Made by a program: the position numbers and the translations under genes
Notes under the pieces: model-generated
Seen by the model: the letters and a program-made list of their open reading frames with translations, nothing else
Told to the model about the DNA's origin: nothing
Database searches by the model: none
Shown: in pieces, positions 4,516 to 18,321 of the stretch
Position numbering within the stretch: the stretch's first letter is position 1
How the letters are laid out: every line of letters begins with the position of its first letter
Virus record (IMG/VR): IMGVR_UViG_3300017992_000735
Source of the DNA: an uncultured virus (IMG/VR IMGVR_UViG_3300017992_000735)
Taxonomy: Duplodnaviria; Heunggongvirae; Uroviricota; Caudoviricetes
Reading direction: 5' to 3' (one strand)
Length of the DNA stretch: 20,000 bases

Positions 4516-4767
4516 TCACACCTTATACCCCCACCTGCCAGGATTCTGCAAAAACTCCTCAGCGTTCTCCAGAGAGCCCCCCTCCAACCACAACATATTA
4601 TCCCCTAGCCCCTCCTCAGACTCCAAAACCTCAGAAGTAACCTCGCGGGATGTATTGATAATCTCAGTTACATCCTCCTCAAAAGGACCAGTTACCACAA
4701 CCTGATCTGGGGCGATATCCACAGTTGCAGCATATTCACCATCTAGTCTATATACCTTCACTTCCAC
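4516..4767 (-). CDS. Small acidic protein, putative partner or inhibitor of the upstream metallopeptidase
   Basis: 83 aa; overlaps the upstream stop. Shares the pattern VKVY..G..A/G....EFL...GY.V with ORFs at 13683, 15411 and 16246. Confidence 0.7.
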   Translation of the reverse strand: MEVKVYRLDGEYAATVDIAPDQVVVTGPFEEDVTEIINTSREVTSEVLESEEGLGDNMLWLEGGSLENAEEFLQNPGRWGYKV

Positions 4768-5537
4768 TCCTCCGGCATTCTATCACCAAGGACAGCTCCC
4801 ACCATCTCATGTGATTCCGGAAAATAATGCTTATAGAAACCCACTTCCCTTTTATTCGAGTACCTTTTCACACATTCTATACTCTCTGCAAAGAATTCCC
4901 GCTCTGTTTTCTTTGCATAGTTCGTAGGAAACCGATCAAAAAGCCAGGCTCGGTCGTACGGATTATCTTTTGCCCGAATCACCTTGGATGACTTAGCCAC
5001 TCCCTTCGTTTCACTCAGTGTGTAATCCAGCGCATGTCCCCACTCATGCCAAACTGTGCCATAACTGGCAAACCCCTGAGGTGTGTCTAGGTTAGCAGAT
5101 GTTTGCGGCCCAAAAACAATTTCATCTGTGTACACCCTGTAAAATCCAGCGCAACCCCTAGCCGAACCTCCATATACGCGATCGAATTCTTCTTGGGTTT
5201 TTGTTGTGATAAAAGTAACCTCAGTATCGGGTTGAGGCATCCCTTGCAGACTGTATGCTATCTCAGTAGCTTGGTTCTTTGTAACACGCGAACCCACACG
5301 GTGCCCACCAGTAGCCTCCTCAAACTTACTCCTATAGTTGTCATCAGTCCAATCAACAGTACTAACCTTTCCCACAACAGCGGGCGCCTTACTGGGAGCA
5401 CTTCCCCCTCTCCTGCCCTTGCGCCCTTTGTGACCCCAATGACCACTTCCAGGCCCGCCTTTCTCAACCTCTGACTTGCCTACGTAGAATTCAATCTCTT
5501 TTCCTAACCCTGCGATCTCCGACGGAGTCGCTGCCAA
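4758..5537 (-). CDS. GGPGSG-tagged zincin metallopeptidase domain (probably the C-terminal half of a MuF fusion, 4758-6149)
   Basis: Tag at 5388-5459. HEWGH plus downstream YA....EFFAES (gluzincin, lethal-factor-like signature). In frame with MuF across one TGA. Confidence 0.8.
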   Translation of the reverse strand: MAATPSEIAGLGKEIEFYVGKSEVEKGGPGSGHWGHKGRKGRRGGSAPSKAPAVVGKVSTVDWTDDNYRSKFEEATGGHRVGSRVTKNQATEIAYSLQGMPQPDTEVTFITTKTQEEFDRVYGGSARGCAGFYRVYTDEIVFGPQTSANLDTPQGFASYGTVWHEWGHALDYTLSETKGVAKSSKVIRAKDNPYDRAWLFDRFPTNYAKKTEREFFAESIECVKRYSNKREVGFYKHYFPESHEMVGAVLGDRMPEEWK

Positions 5538-5546
5538 GTGGCACCT

Positions 5547-6149
5547 TCAGACGTTCGGGTGAGCTGGCGGCCCACCACACTTTTCTCCAAAAACGTTATC
5601 AAAGGTCTTCGAGTTAACCGGCTGGGGACCCATCGCCTCATTAGCCTTACAGACCTCACATGCGTCCGCTCCAATGGTCACCCATCGCTTTGTTTCAAGG
5701 CCGACTTCGTCCATCTGCTTTTCCCAAGCAGAAGACTGGGCACGAGCAATTTCAAACCGAGTGATCGAGCGGATCCTTTGCTCACTAAACTCGCTCTGCT
5801 CGAATAAATTTTTAAAAATTCCGTCTATCAGGTCTTGTTCGGGGATCCCTTCTTGGAGACCGTTGTAGATCATAGTGCGGAGGTAGTGTTTGGTTCCTCT
5901 GTTGACGTTTCGAACCATCTCTGCTGCTCTGTCTTGAATAAATTCCAGAGCAACAGGATCTACCAGGTCAAAAGCCAACTCAATTGCTACCCCAGCCAGC
6001 TCTCCGATGTACTCTGCTGCCCCTTCTAGCCCGTCTAAGTAAGCCAGAGTTAACGCTGCAATGAGTTCGTCAGAAACGTCTATTGACCAAAACTCTTCTG
6101 AGTCGTCTAGGATCTCATCTATTCGGTCCCACAGTTCTTCGTCAGCCAC
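5547..6149 (-). CDS. MuF / SPP1 gp7-like head morphogenesis protein
   Basis: RIRSITRFEIARA, KRWVTIGADACEVC and PPAHPN motifs; RBS AGGAG. The ORF ends at a TGA inside the HP..CRC motif (HPNV*RCHL). Confidence 0.85.
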   Translation of the reverse strand: MADEELWDRIDEILDDSEEFWSIDVSDELIAALTLAYLDGLEGAAEYIGELAGVAIELAFDLVDPVALEFIQDRAAEMVRNVNRGTKHYLRTMIYNGLQEGIPEQDLIDGIFKNLFEQSEFSEQRIRSITRFEIARAQSSAWEKQMDEVGLETKRWVTIGADACEVCKANEAMGPQPVNSKTFDNVFGEKCGGPPAHPNV

Positions 6150-6161
6150 TCAAAAAGTCTC

Positions 6162-7010
6162 CTACTCTCGCGGCACCGTTGTACTTGTATCAGATACATA
6201 TACCTTGCCCCTGTTCAATATAATCGTCTCAGGCAACCCTTGCCCATCTAAACCTTGAATAGCATCATAACCCAACAACGCCGGGAGCCGAGCCATATCG
6301 TGTCGCGCAAACTCCGCTACATCATTTGAAATCCGAGAATATTCTGTTATATCCCTTACCAAATCCTTGTTTGTTGGGTCCTTAGCAAGACGAACAGATA
6401 ACTTATTAAGTTCGGTATCTCTCAACTTGCTAAACTGGTCGTGTAATCTATGAACTTCTGCCTCTGTAACAACTTTAGCCCCTTTACTAAGAGCCATCCT
6501 AGTGACAACTCCGCCCTCGCTTTTCGCAAAATGTTTAGCATGGCTTTCGGCATCCCTACCATGTGCAGCATGAACCCCGCTGGCATAAAATCCACTCCCA
6601 GTATGCAATCTACCTGACCTAAACTGTTCGGCGTACTCTGCCGCTCGGGCTCCTCCCTCCGCCCTAAACATCTCCAGTCCACCAGAACCGATAACGCTGT
6701 CTAGCTCCTTCTCCGTTACCACACTCGGCAGTGAATTATAACCAATCTCGGCGAACAGTCTTCCTGTGATCTCCTCCTTTGTGCCTTCCTCTCCTAAACG
6801 ACCTATCATTCCACCAATATCCGTAAAACCGGTAGGAGAAACCAGATCCGCCAACGGCGTAAGTCTTCCAGCTCTAGAGGGAGCCGACCCACCTCTTTTG
6901 CCCTTTCGTCCTCGATGTCCCCAATGACCTGAGCCAGGGCCTCCCATCGCCCGAAAATCACCAAGAGAAGATTCTATTAGATTGACAATACCTGCAGACA
7001 AGTCAGCCAT
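6162..7010 (-). CDS. GGPGSG-tagged ADP-ribosyltransferase-like protein
   Basis: Start most likely ATG at 7010 (TAATG overlap with the upstream stop). Tag at 6873-6944. EMFRA..GSGFYASG..GYDAI..ETIILNR pattern; paralog of 10822-11949. Confidence 0.6.
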   Translation of the reverse strand: MADLSAGIVNLIESSLGDFRAMGGPGSGHWGHRGRKGKRGGSAPSRAGRLTPLADLVSPTGFTDIGGMIGRLGEEGTKEEITGRLFAEIGYNSLPSVVTEKELDSVIGSGGLEMFRAEGGARAAEYAEQFRSGRLHTGSGFYASGVHAAHGRDAESHAKHFAKSEGGVVTRMALSKGAKVVTEAEVHRLHDQFSKLRDTELNKLSVRLAKDPTNKDLVRDITEYSRISNDVAEFARHDMARLPALLGYDAIQGLDGQGLPETIILNRGKVYVSDTSTTVPRE

Positions 7011-8407
7011 TACCATTTCCAATCAGGATAACTACTCCCCAAATTACTTACCTGATCCCTTGCCACAATTAGTTCTTTATTGAAAATCGCCCTATCCTCA
7101 CAAATCAGAACAGGGGAAACCCAGAATAATTCTCCCCCGACTTCATAATCAACTATAGCGCACCCATTCTGCCACTGTGGACCTGAACTAAACCCAGGTA
7201 CCCGGCCATCTATCCAGCAGGCACACCCAGGTGAGAACCCAACAACCTGCTTTATCTCCTTAGCGCGGTGTATCGTTCTGCTTCCCCACTCCACCTTGTG
7301 AGTGTGGCCGAAAATCTCATTCGTGTCTCCACTCTCAATAACTGCTTTGGCAGTATTTCCGGGAATTCTCGCTATCTCGCCGTGGGTCAAGCGTAAAAAC
7401 TCATTTAACCATACCTCCCCACTCGGGTAATCTCCAACCCATTCTATCTCTAAACTGTCCAACCCTAGTAGACGGGGCACACTCATAGCTGGTGGCATCT
7501 CCATCTCATCGGCGGGCCGGAGGTCATAAGCGGCTCTCAAGTGAGTGACAATGGCATCTTGCAACCTTTTACCGTGGTTCCCTTCGTAAACAGTCATCTC
7601 CTCACAACATTGCCGAAATTGAGACAACCACCAGTGAGCTTCCAGTACAGAAGGCTGAGTCGTTTCGCAGAACTCTGGAGATTTTGTATATTTTGTAGAC
7701 CACTCAGCCAAATCTAACATATCCCCCAAAACATCCACACGGTCCACTTCAGCTATTTGAGCTACTTGGAGGATAACATCTAGAACTGCACGGTTATGGA
7801 GAGGAGTAAGCTCACCTGTTGTAATATCACGAATAAATCCAAAATGGGGATCTGAAAATATAAGCGTTCTGCGCAGTTCCCCTTTTCGTGCCTTATATGC
7901 CTGTGGAAGTTTGAAAATCTTGCACTCAACCGGCTGGAGGACTGGGAAGATCGGTTCCGGCTCAATACGTGATAACCAAACTTTGACTTGGAACAGGGGA
8001 GCAATAACAAGTCCGTCCTCGTATACAGAACCAGTTAGACGCCCCTCATCCCAAGTAAGATCCTTTTTGGCTGCCTTAGCACCAACGGGCCACTTGTTTA
8101 CAAGGTACCGGTCAACCTTCCAGACATTTAAATCTACCTGGCAAACTTCAAGCATCTCATCGAGAGTTTTGATTCCAGCAAACTGTGCCTCAACAACCAT
8201 AGTGTTAACCCGTTCATCTCTTTTGACAGTTTGCCGATCTTTCCTGCCTCTTTTTTCTCTCTCTCGAATATACTTCTGCCGAGCAGAGCTCTCAGAGACA
8301 CCAAACATCTCCCCCACTTCTCTCCAGGACTGCCCAGATGCTTCGATGTTGTCTCCCATAGAGATTAGTAGATTTGTCTCGTCTTGGGTCCAGCGCTTAT
8401 TGGCCAA
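7010..8407 (-). CDS. Calcineurin-like metallophosphoesterase with N-terminal HTH/Myb-like domain
   Basis: All five motifs are present: FSDPH, GDMLD, GNH, THG, GHTH. N-terminal RWTQDE..SWREVGEMFGVSESSARQKY. Confidence 0.85.
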   Translation of the reverse strand: MANKRWTQDETNLLISMGDNIEASGQSWREVGEMFGVSESSARQKYIREREKRGRKDRQTVKRDERVNTMVVEAQFAGIKTLDEMLEVCQVDLNVWKVDRYLVNKWPVGAKAAKKDLTWDEGRLTGSVYEDGLVIAPLFQVKVWLSRIEPEPIFPVLQPVECKIFKLPQAYKARKGELRRTLIFSDPHFGFIRDITTGELTPLHNRAVLDVILQVAQIAEVDRVDVLGDMLDLAEWSTKYTKSPEFCETTQPSVLEAHWWLSQFRQCCEEMTVYEGNHGKRLQDAIVTHLRAAYDLRPADEMEMPPAMSVPRLLGLDSLEIEWVGDYPSGEVWLNEFLRLTHGEIARIPGNTAKAVIESGDTNEIFGHTHKVEWGSRTIHRAKEIKQVVGFSPGCACWIDGRVPGFSSGPQWQNGCAIVDYEVGGELFWVSPVLICEDRAIFNKELIVARDQVSNLGSSYPDWKW

Positions 8408-8410
8408 AAA

Positions 8411-9877
8411 CTACTCCTTTAGCTGATTGAAAATGTTCTCGATGCTTCCCTTTACTGCCTTTCCATACAACTGATCCGCTAGGACATCTTGCATCATTTT
8501 AAAAGCTTTGGTTTGTTCAAGGTCATCTCCTACGTCTTGCTTCAACAGGAGGGTTTCCTCGACTATATGGGCAGCTTTCACTGCGGGAGGATACTCAGGA
8601 TATTCTCCTTTTGGTTTTTGAGCCTTAGGTGGAACTTCCTTTTGGGCAGGAGGTTTGGGCAGACCCTGGATTCCTTCTTGTATTGCTCCCGGTTTAACAG
8701 GGATTGAAAATATTCCGTCTTCAACTGCCTGCTCTAGCATATCCTCTGCTGCCAGTGCCCCAGCTCCTACCATCTGACCCAGGTAAGCAATTCGCAAACC
8801 CTCAGCCTGGCGCCGTTTGACTACGTCCTCAATCTCAGGAACGTCCCAATCGAACATGATTGGGCAATCTGGCGGGAAGAACTGCCGGTTGATCGCCCGC
8901 TTCTCGTCGTAGGCGAACCCACCCACGCCAGTGCGTTGGGTAGTTAACCTCTGTACACGAGCTCCAGCAAGCGTCCTATCGTGCTCCGCCAGGCCAAGGC
9001 TACCTATGGTCAAACCATATGGTGTTCCACATTTCTCCGCGTAATGCTTCCATTTTTCGCTAACATTCAGCTCAGGTTGACCAAAAGGAACAAATTTGGC
9101 AGGAGTCTCGTGTTCATACAGCAAAGGAATCTTAATGGGATTCACACCCATCATCATTTCTTCGAAACCTTTTTTCCACTCTGTCACGTCCGCTTCCGAG
9201 AAATCCATTAAATCCAAGATTCCTGCAATGGGGGTATCCGATAAACTTTTCAAATCATAAGTATAAAGCCTTGCCAACGCTTCTATCACTTGATAATTTT
9301 GTTCTACAGGGCTTTTTTGATACCCAAAGAGCTTTATGCTCGTCTGCGGAAGGTACATAAGTCGAGCAATTTCTCGACGTTTAAACGCGATTGGCCGCTG
9401 ATTGTCATTCGGATCCATCTGGACGTATGGATAGTTTGGGTTGCCTTGATTGATATACATCGTACCAGCATCCACGTGCACTATTCCAGCAGGGTAACCA
9501 GCAGGGAACTTCCCACCAAACGCACCATCTGGCCACCACATAATCTCTAAAGAACCCCCAAAAGGTAGATCGTAGCTATCTTTCTCCCACATAACCTTTA
9601 GGAGATCGAACCTAACATGCTCGAAAAGTTCCTCATAATACTCAGTTATCTCTAATACTTCATCGCTCTTTGGGTCCACCCCCTTCTTTGGAGTAAACTT
9701 ATACTCAAGTTTCAAGGATCTCACAAGATGTGTCTGGTACGAAAGGTTTACAGGCTCTGATGCCAGATACCGCCACTGCGTGCTTGAGAACATAGAAGGC
9801 ACACGAGACGGCTGTAAAAATGGTCTTGTGTTTACATCCAGATATGCTACTGATCTTCTCTTCGGTTCTGCTGCCAT
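8411..9877 (-). CDS. Portal protein
   Basis: 488 aa from ATG 9877 (TAATG overlap with the upstream stop, GAGG RBS). Located between terminase and MuF. Portal-like segments GIVHVDAGTM, PYVQM, FGYQKSPVE, AGILDL, YGLTIGSLGL. Confidence 0.75.
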   Translation of the reverse strand: MAAEPKRRSVAYLDVNTRPFLQPSRVPSMFSSTQWRYLASEPVNLSYQTHLVRSLKLEYKFTPKKGVDPKSDEVLEITEYYEELFEHVRFDLLKVMWEKDSYDLPFGGSLEIMWWPDGAFGGKFPAGYPAGIVHVDAGTMYINQGNPNYPYVQMDPNDNQRPIAFKRREIARLMYLPQTSIKLFGYQKSPVEQNYQVIEALARLYTYDLKSLSDTPIAGILDLMDFSEADVTEWKKGFEEMMMGVNPIKIPLLYEHETPAKFVPFGQPELNVSEKWKHYAEKCGTPYGLTIGSLGLAEHDRTLAGARVQRLTTQRTGVGGFAYDEKRAINRQFFPPDCPIMFDWDVPEIEDVVKRRQAEGLRIAYLGQMVGAGALAAEDMLEQAVEDGIFSIPVKPGAIQEGIQGLPKPPAQKEVPPKAQKPKGEYPEYPPAVKAAHIVEETLLLKQDVGDDLEQTKAFKMMQDVLADQLYGKAVKGSIENIFNQLKE

Positions 9878-10770
9878 TAGAATAACCTCTCCATATGAGG
9901 AGCCCCCACACCCTTGGTAGAACTTAGCGGCAGAATCCAATTCTCAACTAAAAAATCTGCTCCGTACTCCTCCAGTTGAAAATCCCAGATTGCAACCACA
10001 AAGTATCCATTCTGATGCGCCCACCTAGCCTTTTCTATATCTCGCTCCTGCATGTCAGGGAGAGTATGCCAGTAGGACCCTTGAACCTCAATTAGTGTCC
10101 TGGGAGGCACGAACTCATCGTAGATCCTATAATACCCCTTCGGCCTATACTGAGATATGTGCCTAATCCCCTTCTCATCCAGAGCCCGAGATACATCAAT
10201 CTCTATAGAAGTAGGGGAGTCAAAAACTCCATCGTAGTCGCCTCTCCGCCAAGCCTCTTTTACGCTCTCAGACATCCTTGCACGGACTTCGTCGGTATAC
10301 ACCGCCCGGTTTCCAAGTAGAACTTTAGCCTCTCGGGCTCTCCGCATATTAGCCTGTACCTCATCCGGGTTATTCTCACACCACTGCCTTATCTTCCTAG
10401 ATTGCCGTACTCGGAGTTCCTCCGTCCATGCTCCCTCGTGATCGCCCCTATCCCAAGATTCCTTTATCTTACCCGACATCTCATGATGTCTATCAGGATC
10501 CTTCCACGCTGCAGTTGCTGCTCTAGATTTTTTCCGAGTTGTTTCACCACTACTGTGGTCTCCCCGACTCCACGCCTCCTTAGTGGTCTTGGAATATTTC
10601 CTCCTCGTCTCACTGCACATTAGCGGTGCTTCAGGAAACCTCTCCAGATACTCTACCGAAGATATCCCATGCTTAAACGGTAGATGGCGGTTATCTAAAC
10701 GCCTTGCCTTGGCACCGCATACCCTACAAACTATGTAATCTATTCCTTCCACGCCCATATCTTTTGCCAT
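9877..10770 (-). CDS. Vsr/DUF559-like endonuclease with zinc finger and NUMOD3-like repeats (putative homing endonuclease)
   Basis: CRVCG..H....H zinc finger; repeated ExRxKxSxxxKEAWxRGD helices; C-terminal PTSIE..YD..LIEVQGSYWH..D..K..GYFVVAIWD. Confidence 0.8.
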   Translation of the reverse strand: MAKDMGVEGIDYIVCRVCGAKARRLDNRHLPFKHGISSVEYLERFPEAPLMCSETRRKYSKTTKEAWSRGDHSSGETTRKKSRAATAAWKDPDRHHEMSGKIKESWDRGDHEGAWTEELRVRQSRKIRQWCENNPDEVQANMRRAREAKVLLGNRAVYTDEVRARMSESVKEAWRRGDYDGVFDSPTSIEIDVSRALDEKGIRHISQYRPKGYYRIYDEFVPPRTLIEVQGSYWHTLPDMQERDIEKARWAHQNGYFVVAIWDFQLEEYGADFLVENWILPLSSTKGVGAPHMERLF

Positions 10771-10821: not shown

Positions 10822-11949
10822 CTACTCAACGCGTCCCTCCAGAACAGCAATAAGATGGTGCATATCCTGCTCTAAGTATTTCCTCCGCGTATGCCATTTC
10901 TTAACTGTCCCCGGCGATTTGGATGTTGCTACCTTCTCTGCCGCTGCGATTGCCTGCTGACGCTTACTCTCTATTTGATTTCTCAGCCAGCTAACTCGAT
11001 GCTTCGGCAAAACAGCACTTGGGACAATTTTGCTCACATCCACCTGTTGCGACGGCAGTACTCGAGGAGACTTTATGGAACCTCGTTTAGGTGCTGTTGC
11101 ACTCATTGGGTTCTCTGCTATTCGCAGTGCAGATCTATTTAAAACCACCATGTAGCCCTGCTCCGATACATCTATTGCATCATAACCGCTAGCAGCAGCA
11201 AACCGCCCCCGATCTCCTGTCGCTATGTGTCCTACGACATCTCCATGCTGTTCTGCTATGTAAGAGGCCTGCATAAGATTATTCGCAGTCTTATTATCGC
11301 CACGATTCGCAGCAGCAAAGGCTTGGGTCCTCAGAGTATCAGGATCTACTTTTACGCTCTCCCGGCTTGCTAGCCATCCTTCCATCTCCTCCTTAAGCGC
11401 AGACTCACTTATAACGTTAGCATCTTTTTTCAGAGACATCCGAATTATAGTTGCGTTTTCTCCTTGCTTAGCTCCAAAGTACATTGCAGTACTATCTGCA
11501 TTCTCGCCGTAAACTGTATATAACCCTGCGCCATGCATACCGGTCCCCGTCTCAAACGAATCTCCATACATCAACTCCTCGGCATACTCCCCCCTAGATA
11601 CTCCACGGTAAAGCTCCCTCTCCCCAGAATTCACAAACTCATTTAGCTCAGAAGCAGTCACCACATCCGGTTTGCCATCGAACCCCTGCTCTTTGATAAT
11701 CTCATTGGCAATAGGATCCGTTCGGCTGCTGGGTGGGACATACGTGTCGACCCTCCCCTCGAGCACAGAATTCAAATATGGGGATTTGGCCACAGTTCCA
11801 GCCTTGCTGGGAGCGGAACCACCGCGCCTCCCTTTCCGCCCTTTGTGGCCCCAGTGTCCAGAACCGGGCCCACCCATCTCCTTGTACTCACCAAGGGACT
11901 CGTCTATTAAATTGATAATATCAGCGGAACATTGGGTAGAAGCCGTCAA
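10822..11949 (-). CDS. GGPGSG-tagged ADP-ribosyltransferase-like protein
   Basis: Tag at 11803-11874. ELYRGV..GTGMHGAGLY..GYDAIDV..YMVVLNR, plus a basic C-terminal extension. Confidence 0.62.
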   Translation of the reverse strand: MTASTQCSADIINLIDESLGEYKEMGGPGSGHWGHKGRKGRRGGSAPSKAGTVAKSPYLNSVLEGRVDTYVPPSSRTDPIANEIIKEQGFDGKPDVVTASELNEFVNSGERELYRGVSRGEYAEELMYGDSFETGTGMHGAGLYTVYGENADSTAMYFGAKQGENATIIRMSLKKDANVISESALKEEMEGWLASRESVKVDPDTLRTQAFAAANRGDNKTANNLMQASYIAEQHGDVVGHIATGDRGRFAAASGYDAIDVSEQGYMVVLNRSALRIAENPMSATAPKRGSIKSPRVLPSQQVDVSKIVPSAVLPKHRVSWLRNQIESKRQQAIAAAEKVATSKSPGTVKKWHTRRKYLEQDMHHLIAVLEGRVE

Positions 11950-13690
11950 CTGTATGATAACGCATCTCCTTCATGGGTTGAAAATCTTCCTCGTTCACTG
12001 GGAATGGCTTTTTATCTAAAATGTGATAAGTTCTCCCAGAAGCTGGGCCTCGAACTGTAAAGGGTGGCTGAAGTAAATACCGCAGCTCAAACCTGTCTCC
12101 TCGGTCAGCAGAAACAATCATGCCCGGGCTTAAGAATTTTAATTTTCTCCACCGCTTCCCATCGAAAAATCCCACATCGGGCCAGGCTAACATGACCGCC
12201 TCTGCTCGGTCTGGCGACTTAGTTCCCCGGTCCTTCATCTTGTCCTTCTGCTCGACAATAATTTTACCCCGGGAAGTCACCCCCCACCTTGGTGCAATCA
12301 TCTGTGACTGCAAAACTTCATCATCTGGCAAGTCCATTTCCGTAATACCCAAACGCATCATCCACCAGAGCTGATCTCTCAAAGACCAAAACTCCTCCGT
12401 GTAGTCTTTCTCATTGATAGGTGGTTTCTGGACATGGACTTCGAGAATCTTGACTCCTTCCGGAAGATCTCCAAGCTCACTAAGTTCCTTCAGCCTGTCG
12501 TGTACACCAGACCCTACTCCAATAATATCTACCCGAACCTCCTGAGGGTGATGTTTTCTAATCAGACGAACCGCCTGGCCAGCCACAGTCATCACATCTG
12601 CTCCCTCAAAAGTCCATAGTATTTCGGCGTGGTGTCCGAAAATCCCAGCAATCACTGACTCATCTCCCCCACCGAAGGCAACATCTATTCCGAACCGAAC
12701 AGGCTGGCCTGGTTTCTCAACTCGTTTGACTGCGGCGTCCACGGCAGACATGGGAATGATTTGATCTTCCCCCTCGCTTGGGAACCAGCCTAAGACCTTG
12801 GACTCTGCGAGGGGATTGGGCTTCCACCACTGGTCCGAGTCCGGAGGAAATTGAAAAAGTTCTACCTTTTGCTCTGGTAGCGGGTCAAAGACTCTCGCAC
12901 ACCACTTCCTTATTCGTTCTTGCACCCACTCCAACCGGACAGCTTTTGGGAAGGGAGGATCCTCTCCTTGTAGTTCTGCCAGTATATTGGGGTGATCGAG
13001 TGCACCAATGTGTATACAATGCCAGGTAGGATCGTTCGCAGCGTCGTAAAATGGTCCAGATCTCTCTAGGGGGTTTCCAATAGCAATAACTCGGTTATCA
13101 GGTCCAACTGGGATGTTGTCAACTGCGGCGTCCCAAATCGGCGCTCGGATACCAGGACCTTCGTCGAGTGCCACACATATCCTCTCCTCATGGAACCCCT
13201 GAAACCGGTTCTCTCGGTCGGTTGACAATCCTAGGGCGTAGTGTTTAGCAGAGTGCTTAATTTCCGTAGAGTAAGTTTTTCCGACAGATCCCTCTGGGCG
13301 CTGATCTCGGATTTCGCCCCACAGAAGCTTCTCGACTTGGGGCCAGGTGGGAGCGGTTGTCAGTGCAATCGAAGGATCAAAAACATCGAACCACCAGTTG
13401 ATAAGCCCACCCACAATGAACGTTTTGCCCACACCGAACGATGCTGGGACGATTGTATATTTGTTCATCTGGAATGACAAAGCAACCGCCACTTGTTTGT
13501 CCCACCACTCAACTTTGAGAACTTCCCGGGCGTACTCTTGGATGCTCTCGACGTACTTCGCATACTTCTTAGGAACGGCCAAGGATTTGTCCCGGTTCAT
13601 CCGTTCCCTAATCATTGCGACAAGTCTTCGGTCGTATTTTTCCTCCCAGTTTGGTGGGAGAGAATCTAGCCAGTCGGGAGCCCTAGTCAA
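11921..13690 (-). CDS. terL: Terminase large subunit
   Basis: Walker A ASFGVGKT, Walker B VALDEG, coupling motif IGNP, nuclease motifs FGIDVAFGGGDESV and KSPDRAEA. Confidence 0.93.
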   Translation of the reverse strand: MTRAPDWLDSLPPNWEEKYDRRLVAMIRERMNRDKSLAVPKKYAKYVESIQEYAREVLKVEWWDKQVAVALSFQMNKYTIVPASFGVGKTFIVGGLINWWFDVFDPSIALTTAPTWPQVEKLLWGEIRDQRPEGSVGKTYSTEIKHSAKHYALGLSTDRENRFQGFHEERICVALDEGPGIRAPIWDAAVDNIPVGPDNRVIAIGNPLERSGPFYDAANDPTWHCIHIGALDHPNILAELQGEDPPFPKAVRLEWVQERIRKWCARVFDPLPEQKVELFQFPPDSDQWWKPNPLAESKVLGWFPSEGEDQIIPMSAVDAAVKRVEKPGQPVRFGIDVAFGGGDESVIAGIFGHHAEILWTFEGADVMTVAGQAVRLIRKHHPQEVRVDIIGVGSGVHDRLKELSELGDLPEGVKILEVHVQKPPINEKDYTEEFWSLRDQLWWMMRLGITEMDLPDDEVLQSQMIAPRWGVTSRGKIIVEQKDKMKDRGTKSPDRAEAVMLAWPDVGFFDGKRWRKLKFLSPGMIVSADRGDRFELRYLLQPPFTVRGPASGRTYHILDKKPFPVNEEDFQPMKEMRYHTVDGFYPMFR

Positions 13691-13838
13691 AACGAAACCC
13701 CCGACTCTTCAGAAATTCTACAAGGTCTGCGCCTTCTGGACATCCCTTTTTCGCCTTCTTGAGGTCGGGGGAGTAGACTTGTACTACAAGCCAGCCAGTG
13801 AGCTGGCCCAGCTTGTTATAGATTTTTACTTTGCCCAT
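13683..13838 (-). CDS. Small hypothetical protein (51 aa), duplicate copy A
   Basis: Below the ORF-track cutoff. MGKVKIYNKLGQLTGWLVVQVYSPDLKKAKKGCPEGADLVEFLKSRGFRFD; AAAGGT RBS; fills the gap between neighbours. Confidence 0.8.
   Translation of the reverse strand: MGKVKIYNKLGQLTGWLVVQVYSPDLKKAKKGCPEGADLVEFLKSRGFRFD
13687..13781. repeat. 95-bp direct repeat, copy A (copy B at 15415-15509)
   Basis: 94 of 95 positions identical by direct comparison. Confidence 0.95.
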
Positions 13839-13850
13839 ACTGCTACCTTT

Positions 13851-14069
13851 CTAATCCACTCCATACAAACTTAGAATCACTGCACTTCGTACCGTCTCGG
13901 GACTGTTCGCGAACCAAGCCTCACCTACATCTACTCGCTCGAGATCCATGCAAGTTGATGGGCCCGTCCCATCAGTAAATATATAGATAGGTAAGTCTCC
14001 ATGCTGCTTTCGAATCTCTTCTAGATGATCGATTAGTTCACTAGTAAGCATAATACAAGTCTCCCTCAC
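13851..14069 (-). CDS. Hypothetical phage protein
   Basis: 72 aa; GTGA overlap with the upstream stop. LIDHLEEIRKQHGDLPIYI is typical of small phage proteins. Confidence 0.65.
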   Translation of the reverse strand: MRETCIMLTSELIDHLEEIRKQHGDLPIYIFTDGTGPSTCMDLERVDVGEAWFANSPETVRSAVILSLYGVD

Positions 14070-15418
14070 TCAAATAAGCTCGATAGAGATGTTGCCACCC
14101 GTTGTTCGGAAACAAGCACGTCTTCCACCCACCCACCTTCGGGACTGAGAACGAGTTGGGATTCGATTTGAGAAATGATAAAATCACTCTTAGATACCCC
14201 ACCCGGTACTATAGTAATATTTTTACCTTTGATAGAAGATACCTTATAGTTTCCTTTTATCAACCAAGGTTTCTCCTCGGGGTGATTAGAAAAATTCTTA
14301 AGGTTTGCTCCTCTCTGTGGGTTATCCAAAATAAACGTATATTTACGAGCCCCAAAAGCCCCACCAGCGGGACTAAGGCTCGAAAACTCACGCCCCAAGG
14401 TCCCAAAATCTACCTTGTCTCCCACAGATAGAGAGCCCTCCCAATCTGAACCGCGGTATAAACGAGGAGTACTTCTTAAATCTTGCTCTACCATACTTTT
14501 GATTATAGCTGCTGCTGCCAATTGCTTTGGTATCCACCGACGCTCTGGATTTGCTAAGTCCCTCTCGAAACGTTTGAGAGACACATGCCTAAATCCTGGG
14601 TCGCTTTGACCACTAAATCCCCCGCTGGTGAATAACCTTGCTTCTGCGTAGGCATCTGCATACTTCATGTACTCATTCTCGGGTACCTCATCATGCAGAT
14701 CCCCCAGAAGGGAGGTAAAACCCCGGTCGCGGGCATCTCGACCTATAGACACCAGTATACCCGGATCGTAACCATCCTTCTCCAACTGGCTTACAACCGC
14801 AGCGCCAAGAACGCCGACTGCCCCCGGCAAACTCCCTCCCCTCTTTCCTTTTCGACCAGCGTGACCCCAATGGCCACTTCCTGGTCCGCCTTTCTCTACC
14901 CATCCACCTTCGGGGCTGAGAACGAGTTGGGATTCGACTTGAGAAATGATAAAGTCGCTTTTTACCCGCAGGACTTTTCTTCCGATGTATGTGGCACCAT
15001 ATGGAGCTATGTGGGTATTATCTATAAAACCCGATATATCAACCCTATCCCAACCAGCTTCCGCTGCCATTAACTCCTCAAACCTCCTATCTATAGATCC
15101 CCAAGAAGTTTTACCCAACCCTCGAGACTCCATGCATCCTTCCCACCAGCTTTCAAGCTTAACCTCGTACAAAGTGTTATCCACCTCAGCCTGTATCGAG
15201 AAATCAGGGTCTATATTCCCCTGAATAACATCCACCTCGAATGCGTGCCAAGAAGACCAAGCACCACCTACCGGTTGAGGGCTAGAAATCCCACCAGCTT
15301 TAGAAGGGGCCGATCCACCGCGCTTACCTTTGCGGCCTTTGTGACCATGGTGGCCAGAACCGGGGCCGCCCATCTCAGTTAGTATGGCGCCTACTTCGGC
15401 AAAGAGGTCTCTACTCAA
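14066..15418 (-). CDS. Two-module GGPGSG-tagged polyprotein; second module is R-S-E type ADP-ribosyltransferase-like
   Basis: Tags at 15299-15370 and 14825-14890. LYRG..FSSLS..FSNHPEEKPWL..YKV in module 2. A 23-aa linker is duplicated. Confidence 0.7.
   Translation of the reverse strand: MSRDLFAEVGAILTEMGGPGSGHHGHKGRKGKRGGSAPSKAGGISSPQPVGGAWSSWHAFEVDVIQGNIDPDFSIQAEVDNTLYEVKLESWWEGCMESRGLGKTSWGSIDRRFEELMAAEAGWDRVDISGFIDNTHIAPYGATYIGRKVLRVKSDFIISQVESQLVLSPEGGWVEKGGPGSGHWGHAGRKGKRGGSLPGAVGVLGAAVVSQLEKDGYDPGILVSIGRDARDRGFTSLLGDLHDEVPENEYMKYADAYAEARLFTSGGFSGQSDPGFRHVSLKRFERDLANPERRWIPKQLAAAAIIKSMVEQDLRSTPRLYRGSDWEGSLSVGDKVDFGTLGREFSSLSPAGGAFGARKYTFILDNPQRGANLKNFSNHPEEKPWLIKGNYKVSSIKGKNITIVPGGVSKSDFIISQIESQLVLSPEGGWVEDVLVSEQRVATSLSSLFE
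14123..14191. repeat. Intragenic ~69-bp repeat, copy A (copy B at ~14894-14962)
   Basis: Encodes KSDFIISQ[IV]ESQLVLSPEGGWVE, 22 of 23 aa identical between the copies. Confidence 0.9.
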
Positions 15419-15575
15419 AACGAAACCCCCGACTCTTCAGAAATTCTACAAGGTCTGCGCCTTCTGGACATCCCTTTTTCGCCTTCTGGAGGTCGGGGGA
15501 GTAGACTTGCACCACCCCGTTGATGTACCACCCGACGAGTTGGCCCAACTTATTGTATATTTTTACTTTATCCAT
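15411..15575 (-). CDS. Small hypothetical protein (54 aa), duplicate copy B
   Basis: MDKVKIYNKLGQLVGWYINGVVQVYSPDLQKAKKGCPEGADLVEFLKSRGFRFE; GAGGAG RBS. Confidence 0.82.
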   Translation of the reverse strand: MDKVKIYNKLGQLVGWYINGVVQVYSPDLQKAKKGCPEGADLVEFLKSRGFRFE

Positions 15576-15578
15576 ATC

Positions 15579-16249: not shown

Positions 16250-16506
16250 ACTACAACCTCATAGCCTTCTCGGAGGAGATAGATAATGAGCGCGTTGACA
16301 AAATCCGGATCTGTATCTGATACTATCTCCACGAAATCTATTATTTTATCCTCACCTACGACGTCTGAGCGGCTGGGTATAACCACAGACCGATCTTTAT
16401 TAACTGCAGCCATAATACCTTTGAGTCCTCGATCTGAAGTAGTAACTCGACCCAGCCGATCCATAGTCCCAACCTGCTTACCTGTTACACCGCTAAGGAT
16501 ATTCAT
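16246..16506 (-). CDS. Small protein, putative partner or inhibitor of the upstream metallopeptidase
   Basis: 86 aa; follows the 16503-17258 peptidase directly. Ends F...L...EGYEV, like 4516-4767. Confidence 0.7.
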   Translation of the reverse strand: MNILSGVTGKQVGTMDRLGRVTTSDRGLKGIMAAVNKDRSVVIPSRSDVVGEDKIIDFVEIVSDTDPDFVNALIIYLLREGYEVVV

Positions 16507-17258
16507 TTTATGTACTCCACCCCACCAAACACGTCATCTCGCATGTACTCATAAATCTCCGGAGCTCGCTTCTGTAAGGTCTTCGGGGCGCTTGTATACA
16601 TTTGGTAGCTTTCGGCAAATAACTCCTTGTGATCTTTCTGAGAGTATCGGGAAGGAAATCCCTTCCTCGGACCTCCTGCCTTTGTCGCTTCCGCCCGTAG
16701 TGCACTGGGGTGTATTCCGACTCGACCTTTCTTCTCCCTATAGAACTTTCCAAAATCTTCAACGTAACGCCGGTCTCCATACTGTGAGTTATGATTTTGA
16801 ACCACGTGACCAATCTCATGCACCACAGTGGCCTTATGCCAAATCCGCCTATTATGAGCTCCATAAGTCTCACTATTTAGCTCGATGTAGTTCCCTCTGC
16901 ACCGTCCCTCTGCTCCAGGGATATGGCGTTTCTCAATCCCATAGACCTTGTCTAGGTGCTCCTGGGGGAGATTGGCTACAGCACGCCTTATCACTCCTTT
17001 GTCTTTTTCAGTTAAAGAGGAGTGCAAACGGTCTTCATGCATAGCCGAATCCGTTGGGGGAGTGTGACCCTTGGCAGCAATCCTCTTAGCTGCTGCTTGA
17101 CGCTTTCTCCAGTCCTTGCCTGTTCGTCTAGACATAGCTCTAGAGCGCGGGAGGGACCCACCTCTTTTTCCTTTTCTGCCTGCGTGTCCCCAATTCCCAG
17201 ATCCGGGGCCACCGAGTTCTATGTAGTTGTCTATGATCTGGATAGCAATGTCTGTCAA
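16503..17258 (-). CDS. GGPGSG-tagged zincin metallopeptidase
   Basis: Tag at 17148-17213; HEIGH plus SRYS...ELFAES. Confidence 0.8.
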   Translation of the reverse strand: MTDIAIQIIDNYIELGGPGSGNWGHAGRKGKRGGSLPRSRAMSRRTGKDWRKRQAAAKRIAAKGHTPPTDSAMHEDRLHSSLTEKDKGVIRRAVANLPQEHLDKVYGIEKRHIPGAEGRCRGNYIELNSETYGAHNRRIWHKATVVHEIGHVVQNHNSQYGDRRYVEDFGKFYREKKGRVGIHPSALRAEATKAGGPRKGFPSRYSQKDHKELFAESYQMYTSAPKTLQKRAPEIYEYMRDDVFGGVEYIK

Positions 17259-18187
17259 ATGGTGACTCCTAACAGGTCCGTGACGTTGGCGATCCGGTTG
17301 AATAGGGTAGTCGACTCAGATCCAGCAAACAACAAACCAACCACTTCGCGGTCGCCGGTTAGAACAGCCGAACCGCTGTCTCCGCCCTCGCACATGTAGC
17401 CAGCCATAACTTGATCGGTGAAAGTGGCCATTTGATAGCCGTACAAAACGTTGGCCGTCACGTCAATTTGCTCGATAGTTCCGTGGGTAAGGCCAGTTGT
17501 GCGGCCACTCTTCTGAATACTCATGCCGAGTTCGGCTTCGGCTACTCCAGCGGGTTCGCCGATTTCGAGGATCTCGGGGGTGACGAGGTCAGATGACAGT
17601 GGAGTGGCTAGGGCGGCGTCTACGAGGTTCTCCGAGTTGTTGACTCCTCGGAGGCGGTAGCGAGACTTCATGGCTCGGGCAATCAAGTTCCCGGCACCGA
17701 TGATTCCATCCAAAATGGGACAACTGAACTCAACCGGAACAAACCGGTAAAGCGTAGCGATGAGGTCATCAACCGTTCCGCCGTCGTGGGGACCGGGCTG
17801 GACGATGTAGTCTCCTGGTTCTCCCGCGTTCGAGTTGGCCAAGACGTGGTTGTTGCTCAAAATATACCCTTCGGAGGTGAGGCAACCAAGTGTTCCAGCC
17901 GTGATGTCGACGTGACCAATAGACACTCCACCAGGAGCGGGGCGGTGCTTGCTCGTTCGCATCGCTCTCAAGACACCAACTTCCTGGACGTCTGTTTTGA
18001 TTCCATTGAGGTACTTGGGGACAGGTTCTACGGGGTTTGTTTGTTTCTGGACTACGGAGACGATGACAGCTAGGTCGTCGGTCCGCTCTCCTCCGACTCT
18101 CTTGTAGCCAACTCCTACAGCCACGACGTTCTTTTTGGCTAGTAAGTGGCTAGCGTATGCGGACTTGATAGATCTTACTTCGTTCAT
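17255..18187 (-). CDS. Trypsin-like (Nal1-like) serine protease
   Basis: Start likely ATG 18187 (AAAGGAG RBS). APGGVSIGH..TAGTLG, SNNHVLAN (His), VDAAL (Asp), KSGRTTG, GDSGS (Ser). Confidence 0.88.
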   Translation of the reverse strand: MNEVRSIKSAYASHLLAKKNVVAVGVGYKRVGGERTDDLAVIVSVVQKQTNPVEPVPKYLNGIKTDVQEVGVLRAMRTSKHRPAPGGVSIGHVDITAGTLGCLTSEGYILSNNHVLANSNAGEPGDYIVQPGPHDGGTVDDLIATLYRFVPVEFSCPILDGIIGAGNLIARAMKSRYRLRGVNNSENLVDAALATPLSSDLVTPEILEIGEPAGVAEAELGMSIQKSGRTTGLTHGTIEQIDVTANVLYGYQMATFTDQVMAGYMCEGGDSGSAVLTGDREVVGLLFAGSESTTLFNRIANVTDLLGVTI

Positions 18188-18321
18188 TTTTTCTCCTTTA
18201 CACAAGATGGGCAAGTAAATTCAATGACGGTCGTCCAGACTTTAGGTTTAGCGACTCTAGTAAACCACCCGTATGGCTTGGTAAACCAGCCTTTGCATTT
18301 CTTACACTTGTAGTAGATCAC
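18184..18321 (-). CDS. Small zinc-ribbon protein (45 aa)
   Basis: MIYYKCKKCKGWF...EFTCPSCVKEKK has two CxxC pairs; 4-nt overlaps with both neighbours. Confidence 0.65.
   Translation of the reverse strand: MIYYKCKKCKGWFTKPYGWFTRVAKPKVWTTVIEFTCPSCVKEKK

Follow-up and report, generated by a model that had tools for sequence, protein, structure and literature searches.

A conserved in-frame UGA at a metal-ligand cysteine column of a phage MuF-metallopeptidase gene as a candidate selenocysteine codon

Lambda G/GT and T7 10A/10B are cases of fixed-ratio frameshift recoding in phage structural genes, and Escherichia coli fdhF is the prototype of a gene that carries its selenocysteine insertion sequence (SECIS) inside the open reading frame (ORF). 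MuF polymorphic toxins, or MuF-effector fusions, are known from the available portions of two surveys (Jamet et al. 2017, PMC5576092; Iyer et al. 2017, PMC5512222), the second of which also places zincin-like metallopeptidase (MPTase) domains in polyvalent proteins. Here, we analyzed a stretch of 20,000 nucleotides (the window) from an uncultured virus of the Caudoviricetes, IMG/VR record IMGVR_UViG_3300017992_000735. On its minus strand, a MuF-like head-morphogenesis gene runs into an in-frame TGA at the codon where most homologs encode a metal-ligand Cys, and the same frame continues into a Gly/Arg-rich tag and a zincin-like metallopeptidase. We tentatively read this UGA as selenocysteine (Sec) in a U-x-C half-site of a MuF-effector virion protein.

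An in-frame TGA within a conserved MuF domain

The minus strand reads CAC CCG AAC GTC TGA AGG TGC CAC TTG GCA, which translates as H-P-N-V-*-R-C-H-L-A, with the TGA at 5549..5547. The 200-residue ORF 5547..6149 ends in ...GGPPAHPNV at this codon, and the frame stays open for 262 more codons, up to a TGA at 4758-4760. The resulting 463 codons encode a MuF core, its C-terminal tail, the tag and a HExxH peptidase (Table 1), as a preliminary description made from the sequence had proposed. The MuF ORF and the ORF that follows it have the make-up of the usual MuF-effector fusion, interrupted by a UGA. The core matches nine PHROG families at E<=0.01, including phrog_2662 (5e-15) and phrog_2468 (4.6e-13), and an exhaustive representative search returned 1499 homologs at E<=1e-3. 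No Pfam family was found even at E<=10 for the MuF ORF, the read-through protein or the effector; a 68%-identical relative, P0169, carries a precomputed PF04233 match. The metal-binding motifs CEVC and HPNV are both present, the TGA occupies the first Cys of the CxC, and the second Cys is encoded behind it.

In an alignment of 66 homologs, the column of the TGA is filled by Cys in 49 sequences, Asp in four and Glu in two, with a gap in two and the end of the protein in nine. Asp and Glu can also bind metal. Two positions on, all 57 homologs that extend this far keep the second Cys (C203 of the read-through protein). C167, H197 and P198 do not vary, and C164 is Cys in 62 of the 66 sequences. 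A shorter HPxCxC motif occupies 15 rows of the alignment, and the column counts therefore make the placement of the TGA at the first Cys, already suggested in the preliminary description, right for the HPxxCxC branch of the family.

The stop is shared by close relatives. Thirteen of these, 12 from a word-indexed homolog search plus P0003, were compared as proteins. Nine (59-96% identical, 199-202 residues) end at exactly the TGA codon; two have Cys there, continue through CRCHL and the tail, and end after ...FFTG; and two have Glu, including P0003 (440 residues), a complete MuF-tail-tag-HExxH fusion. Alternation between stop and Cys, which the preliminary description had proposed to look for among related MuF genes, is thus present: the clade of 14 that includes this phage has ten stops (this phage, P0162-P0166, P0168, P0012, P0171 and P0172), two Cys and two Glu. 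In one relative, P0167 (224 residues), the Cys is intact and the protein is split from its neighbor after the tail. P0012 is the only protein ending at this position among the best 150 of the 1499 representatives. In a maximum-likelihood tree, all 14 form a single clade with support 88/89. Its five unresolved sub-lineages comprise three that carry the stop, one Cys lineage and one Glu lineage, so a single origin of the stop is possible, as are several. Across the ten stop forms, which share 56-96% pairwise identity, 71 of 200 columns are invariant, and C164, C167, H197 and P198 are kept in 10/10; a half-site that needs Cys201 and Cys203 is therefore still under selection.

Conservation extends to both sides of the codon. 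R-C-H and the 20-residue tail align with full-length homologs, and reading through the TGA raises six PHROG scores by 0.8-8.2 bits (phrog_2662 from 49.8 to 56.1, phrog_6577 from 30.7 to 38.9, phrog_2468 from 49.5 to 50.3). Residues 1-224 were modeled with AlphaFold2 from a 67-sequence alignment of full-length homologs, with position 201 set to Cys. The model has a mean pLDDT of 83.8; residues 201-224 reach 88-93 and form a strand (204-206) and a helix (209-213), suggesting that the tail is a structurally integral part of the MuF fold. A structure search with this model gave no PDB fold match at E<=0.001. The stretch from the TGA to Cys203 contains no start codon, so this residue could not come from a downstream protein with its own initiation. 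The downstream ORFs of relatives carry the same MuF tail, and in other phages (L142, L144-146) a single frame joins MuF-HPNCRC directly to the same tag. Among ten further tag-bearing IMG/VR records, two have a MuF match, both as long open frames without stops.

One base separates TGA from TGC or TGT, and the preliminary description had allowed for a sequencing error or a fresh nonsense mutation. The window belongs to a 108,853-bp IMG/VR phage record that is 100% identical at the locus, has direct terminal repeats and is classed as 100% complete; its own assembly is a 77-kb record. Compared as contigs rather than raw reads, assemblies of runs X1 and X3 show 0 differences over 4700-6300, and that of X4 shows 0 differences over 4700-5731, with a depth of 74 at the TGA. 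These are runs of three studies (sediment 2018, seawater 2021), some of which may be the source sample. A fourth run yielded a 151-nt contig, ~98% identical, that spans the TGA at depth 2 and has no difference listed at this codon, and the identical 200-residue product is recorded on 11 contigs, seven from JGI and four from Logan/ENA. Because the three runs agree and nine diverged relatives end at the same codon, we reject as highly improbable that the TGA arose by faulty sequencing or assembly, or that it is a recent mutation that inactivated the gene in a defective phage.

TGA is an ordinary stop elsewhere in the window, as had been noted before: it ends nine other ORFs among the 21 longest-ORF calls, four of them in start/stop overlaps, which rules out a general reassignment of the codon. 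The 77-kb genome contains five adjoining in-frame ORF pairs of at least 90 codons, among which the MuF pair is the sole coding-looking pair joined by TGA. The other TGA-joined pair (91+91 codons) has an Arg-rich, low-complexity translation and was judged non-coding.

Candidate decoding of the UGA

A hairpin follows the UGA. Its upper part (5531..5512) reads GCGACUCC-GUC-GGAG-A-UCGC, with the GUC loop starting 23 nt after the UGA. The 20-nt core folds at -10.5 kcal/mol with an upper stem of 4+4 bp, and an extended 36-nt form (5538..5503) reaches -13.4 kcal/mol through a lower stem in which CUUGGC, holding the TTG, pairs with GUUAGG. The consensus for bacterial SECIS elements (bSECIS), as given in the available part of PMC13188914, describes an apical loop of 3-9 nt on an upper stem of 4-16 bp, a G in the first two loop positions (mostly G, then G/U), and a location 16-37 nt from the UGA at no more than -7.5 kcal/mol. 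The hairpin agrees with this model on 4/4 criteria, so its likeness to the bacterial SECIS layout, pointed out in the preliminary description, holds at low specificity. At stricter settings, a loop starting with GU occurs at 11/600 UGA triplets and GU together with this stability at 1/600, the GU criterion having been applied after the loop had been seen. The hairpin would fit a SECIS, and its quality somewhat exceeds what the coding sequence demands; alone, it proves nothing. The TTG in its lower stem would equally suit translational coupling.

The replication genes of the genome (PolA, beta clamp, gamma/tau clamp loader and DnaG-type primase) are of bacterial type, and by this measure the host is bacterial; a SECIS inside the ORF is therefore the applicable type. 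We had considered an archaeal host on account of inserts in tRNA-like genes and of virus matches, the best terminase match being to a Methanosarcinales virus (32.7% identity) and the protease match to an Aeropyrum virus. The bacterial-type replication genes rule it out.

In the Sec reading, the MuF core, UGA, R-C-H, tail, tag and zincin peptidase would form one translational unit, in which a share of the ribosomes would decode the UGA at the metal-ligand position, most probably as Sec. SelB and tRNA-Sec of the bacterial host would insert the residue, guided by the hairpin with its GUC loop, and the product would be a virion protein of 463 residues in which a U-x-C half-site faces C164-x-x-C167. 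Terminating ribosomes would release the 200-residue core and could restart at the TTG nine bases on, and the balance between Sec insertion and termination with restart might set the ratio of tethered to free effector. A UGA with a SECIS is recoded at 30-40% in E. coli according to the accessible text of PMC4513850; termination products and TTG restart would therefore accompany Sec insertion. We infer the decoding of the codon, Sec as its residue and the role of the hairpin as a SECIS. The earlier suggestion of Sec insertion or readthrough gains from the Cys/stop alternation, from Cys203 and the tail behind the stop and from the upstream site that is kept; Sec itself is not demonstrated.

Several observations weigh against Sec. 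No phage protein with selenocysteine, and no structural zinc site that contains it, is known to us, and in E. coli a UGA that precedes an A terminates translation fairly efficiently. The hairpin is easily matched: 67/300 sampled UGA triplets of the genome pass the bSECIS model as implemented here (30/300 reach -10 kcal/mol and 4/300 reach -13.4), 34% of 400 synonymous recodings of the 18 codons pass as well, 23 of them reaching -13.4, and z-scores against dinucleotide shuffles are modest, at -0.5 to -1.6. In two relatives the codon specifies Glu, which is unusual for a Sec position, and Glu lies one base from TAA/TAG and two from TGA. The stops of the nine relatives were compared as ends of the proteins. 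Cys191 occurs in 6/10 stop forms versus 4/57 others (Fisher p=3.5e-4, without phylogenetic correction); this enrichment is readable either way, and the residue could be a replacement ligand in a truncated MuF. Gene callers make the downstream ORF a separate gene, and a Shine-Dalgarno (SD) 5-mer with an in-frame start within four codons is found at only 128/5189 internal codon positions (2.5%). The phage itself has no tRNA-Sec above the cut-off (best 22.1 bits versus 47) and no selB, selA and selD not having been searched for. In the literature we found no phage selenoprotein, and the available part of a review of the prokaryotic selenoproteome (PMC13188914, 2026) mentions neither phage nor virus.

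Further loci of the clade were sought in several collections. In viral contigs, the queries P0001, P0012 and P0003 and alignment A2 retrieved this phage only, and metagenome contigs gave just two distant MuF loci at 27-31% identity and no clade member. Genome contigs contained no clade match, nor did GenBank phages by tblastn. Scanning IMG/VR for PP[AG]HPxx-TGA-x-C produced 99 stretches (80 flanked, 19 short), and this phage was alone in having a MuF context or an open upstream frame. Scanning for PPxHPN-TGA-x-C produced 14, of which one is MuF-like, with no further intact example. This MuF-like stretch, L114 (IMGVR_UViG_2788500345_000001), reads HPN-TGA-ACVMVLS-stop and was rejected as a second example, its upstream part being in another frame; with a frameshift and a stop seven codons later, it is probably a decayed MuF gene.

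A suppressor tRNA or tRNA-Sec encoded by the phage was likewise rejected, as ARAGORN detected no tRNA in either the window or the 77-kb record. The 108.8-kb record has four matches to the tRNA model. Three of them (L005, L006 and L008; 113-124 nt, G001:C1:29876-30487) carry inserts of 35-54 nt in the anticodon region, were missed by ARAGORN without its intron option and lie directly upstream of a Ro60/TROVE gene (vWA_Ro60, 6.9e-63; L153:10503-12290). Two nearby stretches match the Rfam nematode sRNA family RF01656. Given the inserts and this neighbor, the three are probably tRNA-mimicking Y RNAs of the YrlA type, as described in the available text of PMC4201824. The fourth, L007 (G001:C1:81227-81304, minus strand, 78 nt), scores 31.9 bits with the tRNA model and 22.1 bits with the tRNA-Sec model, below the cut-off; it has no recognizable 7-nt anticodon loop and is not called by ARAGORN.

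A second reading takes the UGA as a true stop. An ancestral change from TGY to TGA would have cut a MuF-tail-tag-effector fusion in two, and the split would have been kept: MuF would end at Val200, ribosomes terminated 9 nt upstream would restart at TTG 5537 by means of AGGTG, the hairpin would keep this start closed unless upstream translation opens it, and the effector, which begins with the MuF tail, may dock on the truncated core as a non-covalent capsid tether. We hold this to be nearly as probable as Sec, both standing somewhat short of an even chance. The AGGTG (5546-5542), supplied by the R-C-H bases, a 4-nt spacer and the TTG (5537-5535) directly follow the TGA, in the same register as AGGTG plus 4 nt before the start of the presumed capsid gene; the site is therefore not weak, as the preliminary description had called it, and the geometry arises by chance at the low rate given above. 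Callers start the ORF at the TTG codon in this phage, in P0176 and in P0175; P0002 and P0176 are printed with L at this codon, i.e. TTG, and P0175 starts at the same position. The layout resembles that of four other window genes, which consist of a short leader, the tag and an effector, and the tree permits a single origin of the stop. The Glu forms one step from TAA/TAG, the enriched Cys191, the TTG inside the lower stem and Sec machinery that is not known to be available all fit a split as well. Against it, MuF would lose a Cys that is invariant in 57/57 homologs, plus the strand and helix placed by AlphaFold2, while the partner residues C164, C167, H197 and P198 stay invariant in 10/10 stop forms, and Cys203 cannot be provided in trans. 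The R-C-H codons are intact though they would be untranslated, and the SD site accounts for AGGTG only. The called starts of the relatives' downstream ORFs fall at three positions, codon 205 (P0176, P0175), codon 215 (P0006, P0177) and about codon 219 (P0004), so a fixed restart site seems not to be conserved, and P0167, the cleanly split relative, is cut after the tail. The downstream ORF also lacks the leader of the four stand-alone tag genes, a shared type of amphipathic helix found in other phages too, and has the dissimilar MuF tail in its place. Separate translation from TTG 5537, raised in the preliminary description, stands about level with Sec or readthrough, given the rarity of such a site.

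Near-cognate readthrough is an unlikely third explanation. A few per cent of ribosomes would insert Trp or another residue and make little full-length MuF-effector; this small amount could suffice for a protein present in a few copies per head, and the remaining effector would come from the TTG. The UGA-readthrough extension of the Qbeta coat protein, A1, is a precedent, and UGA, the leakiest stop, is the only one involved. This explanation shares with Sec the evidence for translation behind the stop (PHROG gain, C203, AlphaFold2 model, invariant half-site) and is compatible with the SD site and TTG. Cys191, present in 6/10 stop forms, could replace ligand 201, and P0045 has C191 without Cys201; 4/10 stop forms, however, lack Cys191. 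The column also admits only Cys, Asp and Glu, and Trp is no ligand. UGA-A is not the leakiest context, and we know of no bacterial readthrough-stimulating signal besides the SECIS. Sec insertion, a maintained split and readthrough are not mutually exclusive.

Tag, effectors and genomic surroundings

The tag that joins the MuF tail to the peptidase has a consensus of ~21 residues, GGPGSG[HN][WH]GH.GRKG.RGGS. Six copies lie in minus-strand genes of the window (Table 1), 61-79% identical as DNA and each before an effector-like domain, and the tag recurs in 23 IMG/VR loci from phages of 6-96 kb, often several times per polyprotein. It looks like a general module linker and is possibly a protease site. 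The effector behind the MuF tag has no Pfam or PHROG match of its own; by BLASTP (E=3e-13) it matches the window ORF 16503..17258, which itself matches Pfam PF07737 at 1.1e-6, a family also carried by the relative P0004.

MuF relatives of 77-96% identity keep the tail and tag, but the enzyme that begins right behind ...GGSAPS differs: P0176 has an ADP-ribosyltransferase domain, P0006 and P0175 have one of PI3/4-kinase-like type, and P0177 has another HExxH peptidase. This pattern suggests exchange of effector cassettes at the tag, as in polymorphic toxins, with the MuF and effector of each pair presumed, because their contigs agree in length and source, to sit on one contig. On these grounds, P0176 and the 96%-identical MuF P0162 probably lie together on a contig of 2528 bp.

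Table 1 Coordinates of the MuF-effector locus and related features in the window
Feature	Position	Strand	Basis
MuF-like head-morphogenesis core, 200 codons, GTG start at 6149	5550..6149	minus	ORF list, PHROG
CxxC and HPNV motifs of the MuF core	5649-5660; 5550-5561	minus	
In-frame TGA at the first-Cys column of HPxxCxC	5547..5549	minus	Sequence, 66-homolog alignment
AGG TGC CAC (R-C-H) directly after the TGA; second Cys is C203	5538..5546	minus	
TTG, Leu205 of the read-through protein or start of a separate 259-residue ORF	5535..5537	minus	
MuF C-terminal tail LAATPSEIAGLGKEIEFYVG, 20 residues, kept in full-length MuF homologs	5478..5537	minus	Alignments
Hairpin, candidate SECIS or start-codon occluder	5503..5538	minus	Folds
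Tag KSEVEKGGPGSGHWGHKGRKGRRGGS, Gly/Arg-rich linker before effector domains	5400..5477	minus	Six window copies
Zincin-like metallopeptidase effector; HEWGH 5034-5048, EFFAES 4881-4898	4761..5399	minus	BLASTP to paralog
Tag DNA copies	5383-5469, 6868-6954, 11798-11884, 14831-14900, 15294-15380, 17137-17219	minus	
Terminase	11921..13690	minus	phrog_2, 6.9e-27
Portal-like ORF	8411..9940	minus	phrog_12, weak (0.0098)

The window is a phage late region: all its long ORFs are on the minus strand except one HNH endonuclease gene at the window start. The MuF gene belongs to the head module, on the same strand as the terminase and the weakly portal-like gene and behind both, and starts 12 nt downstream of a tag-effector gene. 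A trypsin-like protease gene is found at 17255..18214. The portal-like ORF is followed in the same frame by a metallophosphoesterase ORF (7010-8407, minus strand), with a single TAG between them; an AAGGAG overlaps this stop, and a TTG lies 3 nt later. In the relative P0007, the homologous portal C-terminus continues directly into GKSEVEKGGPGSG and an ADP-ribosyltransferase domain.

The minus-strand ORF 14066..15418 (450 residues) contains two tags and an internal repeat, SDFIISQ[VI]ESQLVLSPEGGWVE, which is also seen in the DNA (14124-14191 and 14895-14962, 90% identical), and appears to be a two-module polyprotein. Upstream of this ORF and of the terminase gene, a 105-nt segment occurs twice (13683-13787 and 15411-15515, 96% identical), adjoined by a 49-nt segment that also occurs twice (13791-13839 and 15528-15576, 78% identical). 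Each of these repeats covers a small ORF starting with M[GD]KVKIYNKLG. Outside the window, the phage encodes a UvrD-type helicase with an intein, a thioredoxin, two sulfatases, ~10 glycosyltransferases, 7-deazaguanine genes (PTPS, radical SAM, GTP cyclohydrolase I), and a phosphonate-binding protein with an ABC permease.

Relation to known systems

If the UGA is decoded as Sec, this would be the first bacteriophage selenoprotein, and selenoproteins would come to include a structural protein of the virion; an entire clade of marine phages would borrow the SelB system of the host, and phage gene callers would systematically be splitting MuF-effector fusions of this class into two genes. Should the codon instead act as a true stop, the locus would represent an unusual split of long standing, in which MuF is deprived of an invariant Cys and of part of its fold while the tail passes to the effector, suggesting non-covalent loading of cargo into capsids. 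Either way, it forms a compact effector-exchange system in which a constant MuF, tail and tag are combined with interchangeable enzymes, and the tag marks at least five more modules in the 20-kb window and many in other large phages.

As in bacterial selenoproteins, the UGA aligns with Cys, coding conservation continues behind it, and a G-U-N loop is placed at 23 nt. In contrast to them, the residue is a presumed structural metal ligand rather than a known redox site, Glu occurs at the position, and an SD site and start follow. As would be the case here, Qbeta A1, lambda G/GT and T7 10A/10B combine recoding at the end of a short structural protein with a minor form extended at the C-terminus; unlike in these systems, the short form of MuF would be missing an invariant Cys together with a part of the fold. 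Coupled adjacent genes share the succession of stop, SD site and start within 15 nt and the start buried in a hairpin, whereas here the boundary cuts a conserved domain and the downstream frame continues the upstream protein.

The effector resembles the zincin-like MPTase domains of polyvalent proteins in its HExxH and downstream Glu helix (EFFAES), its lethal-factor-like paralog (PF07737), its late-region location and its joined modules, as far as the available part of PMC5512222 describes them; this copy differs in having no Pfam match of its own, and the tag was not found described in that part. With the known MuF-effector fusions, the protein shares an N-terminal MuF head domain, a variable C-terminal effector and a place in the head module. 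The accessible text of PMC5576092 mentions no stop codon, frameshift or readthrough in such fusions, whereas a conserved in-frame stop, placed at a metal-ligand Cys, divides the fusion described here. The present fusion also differs in the Gly/Arg-rich tag that lies between MuF and effector, and in that four more tag-effector genes stand alone within the same 20 kb.

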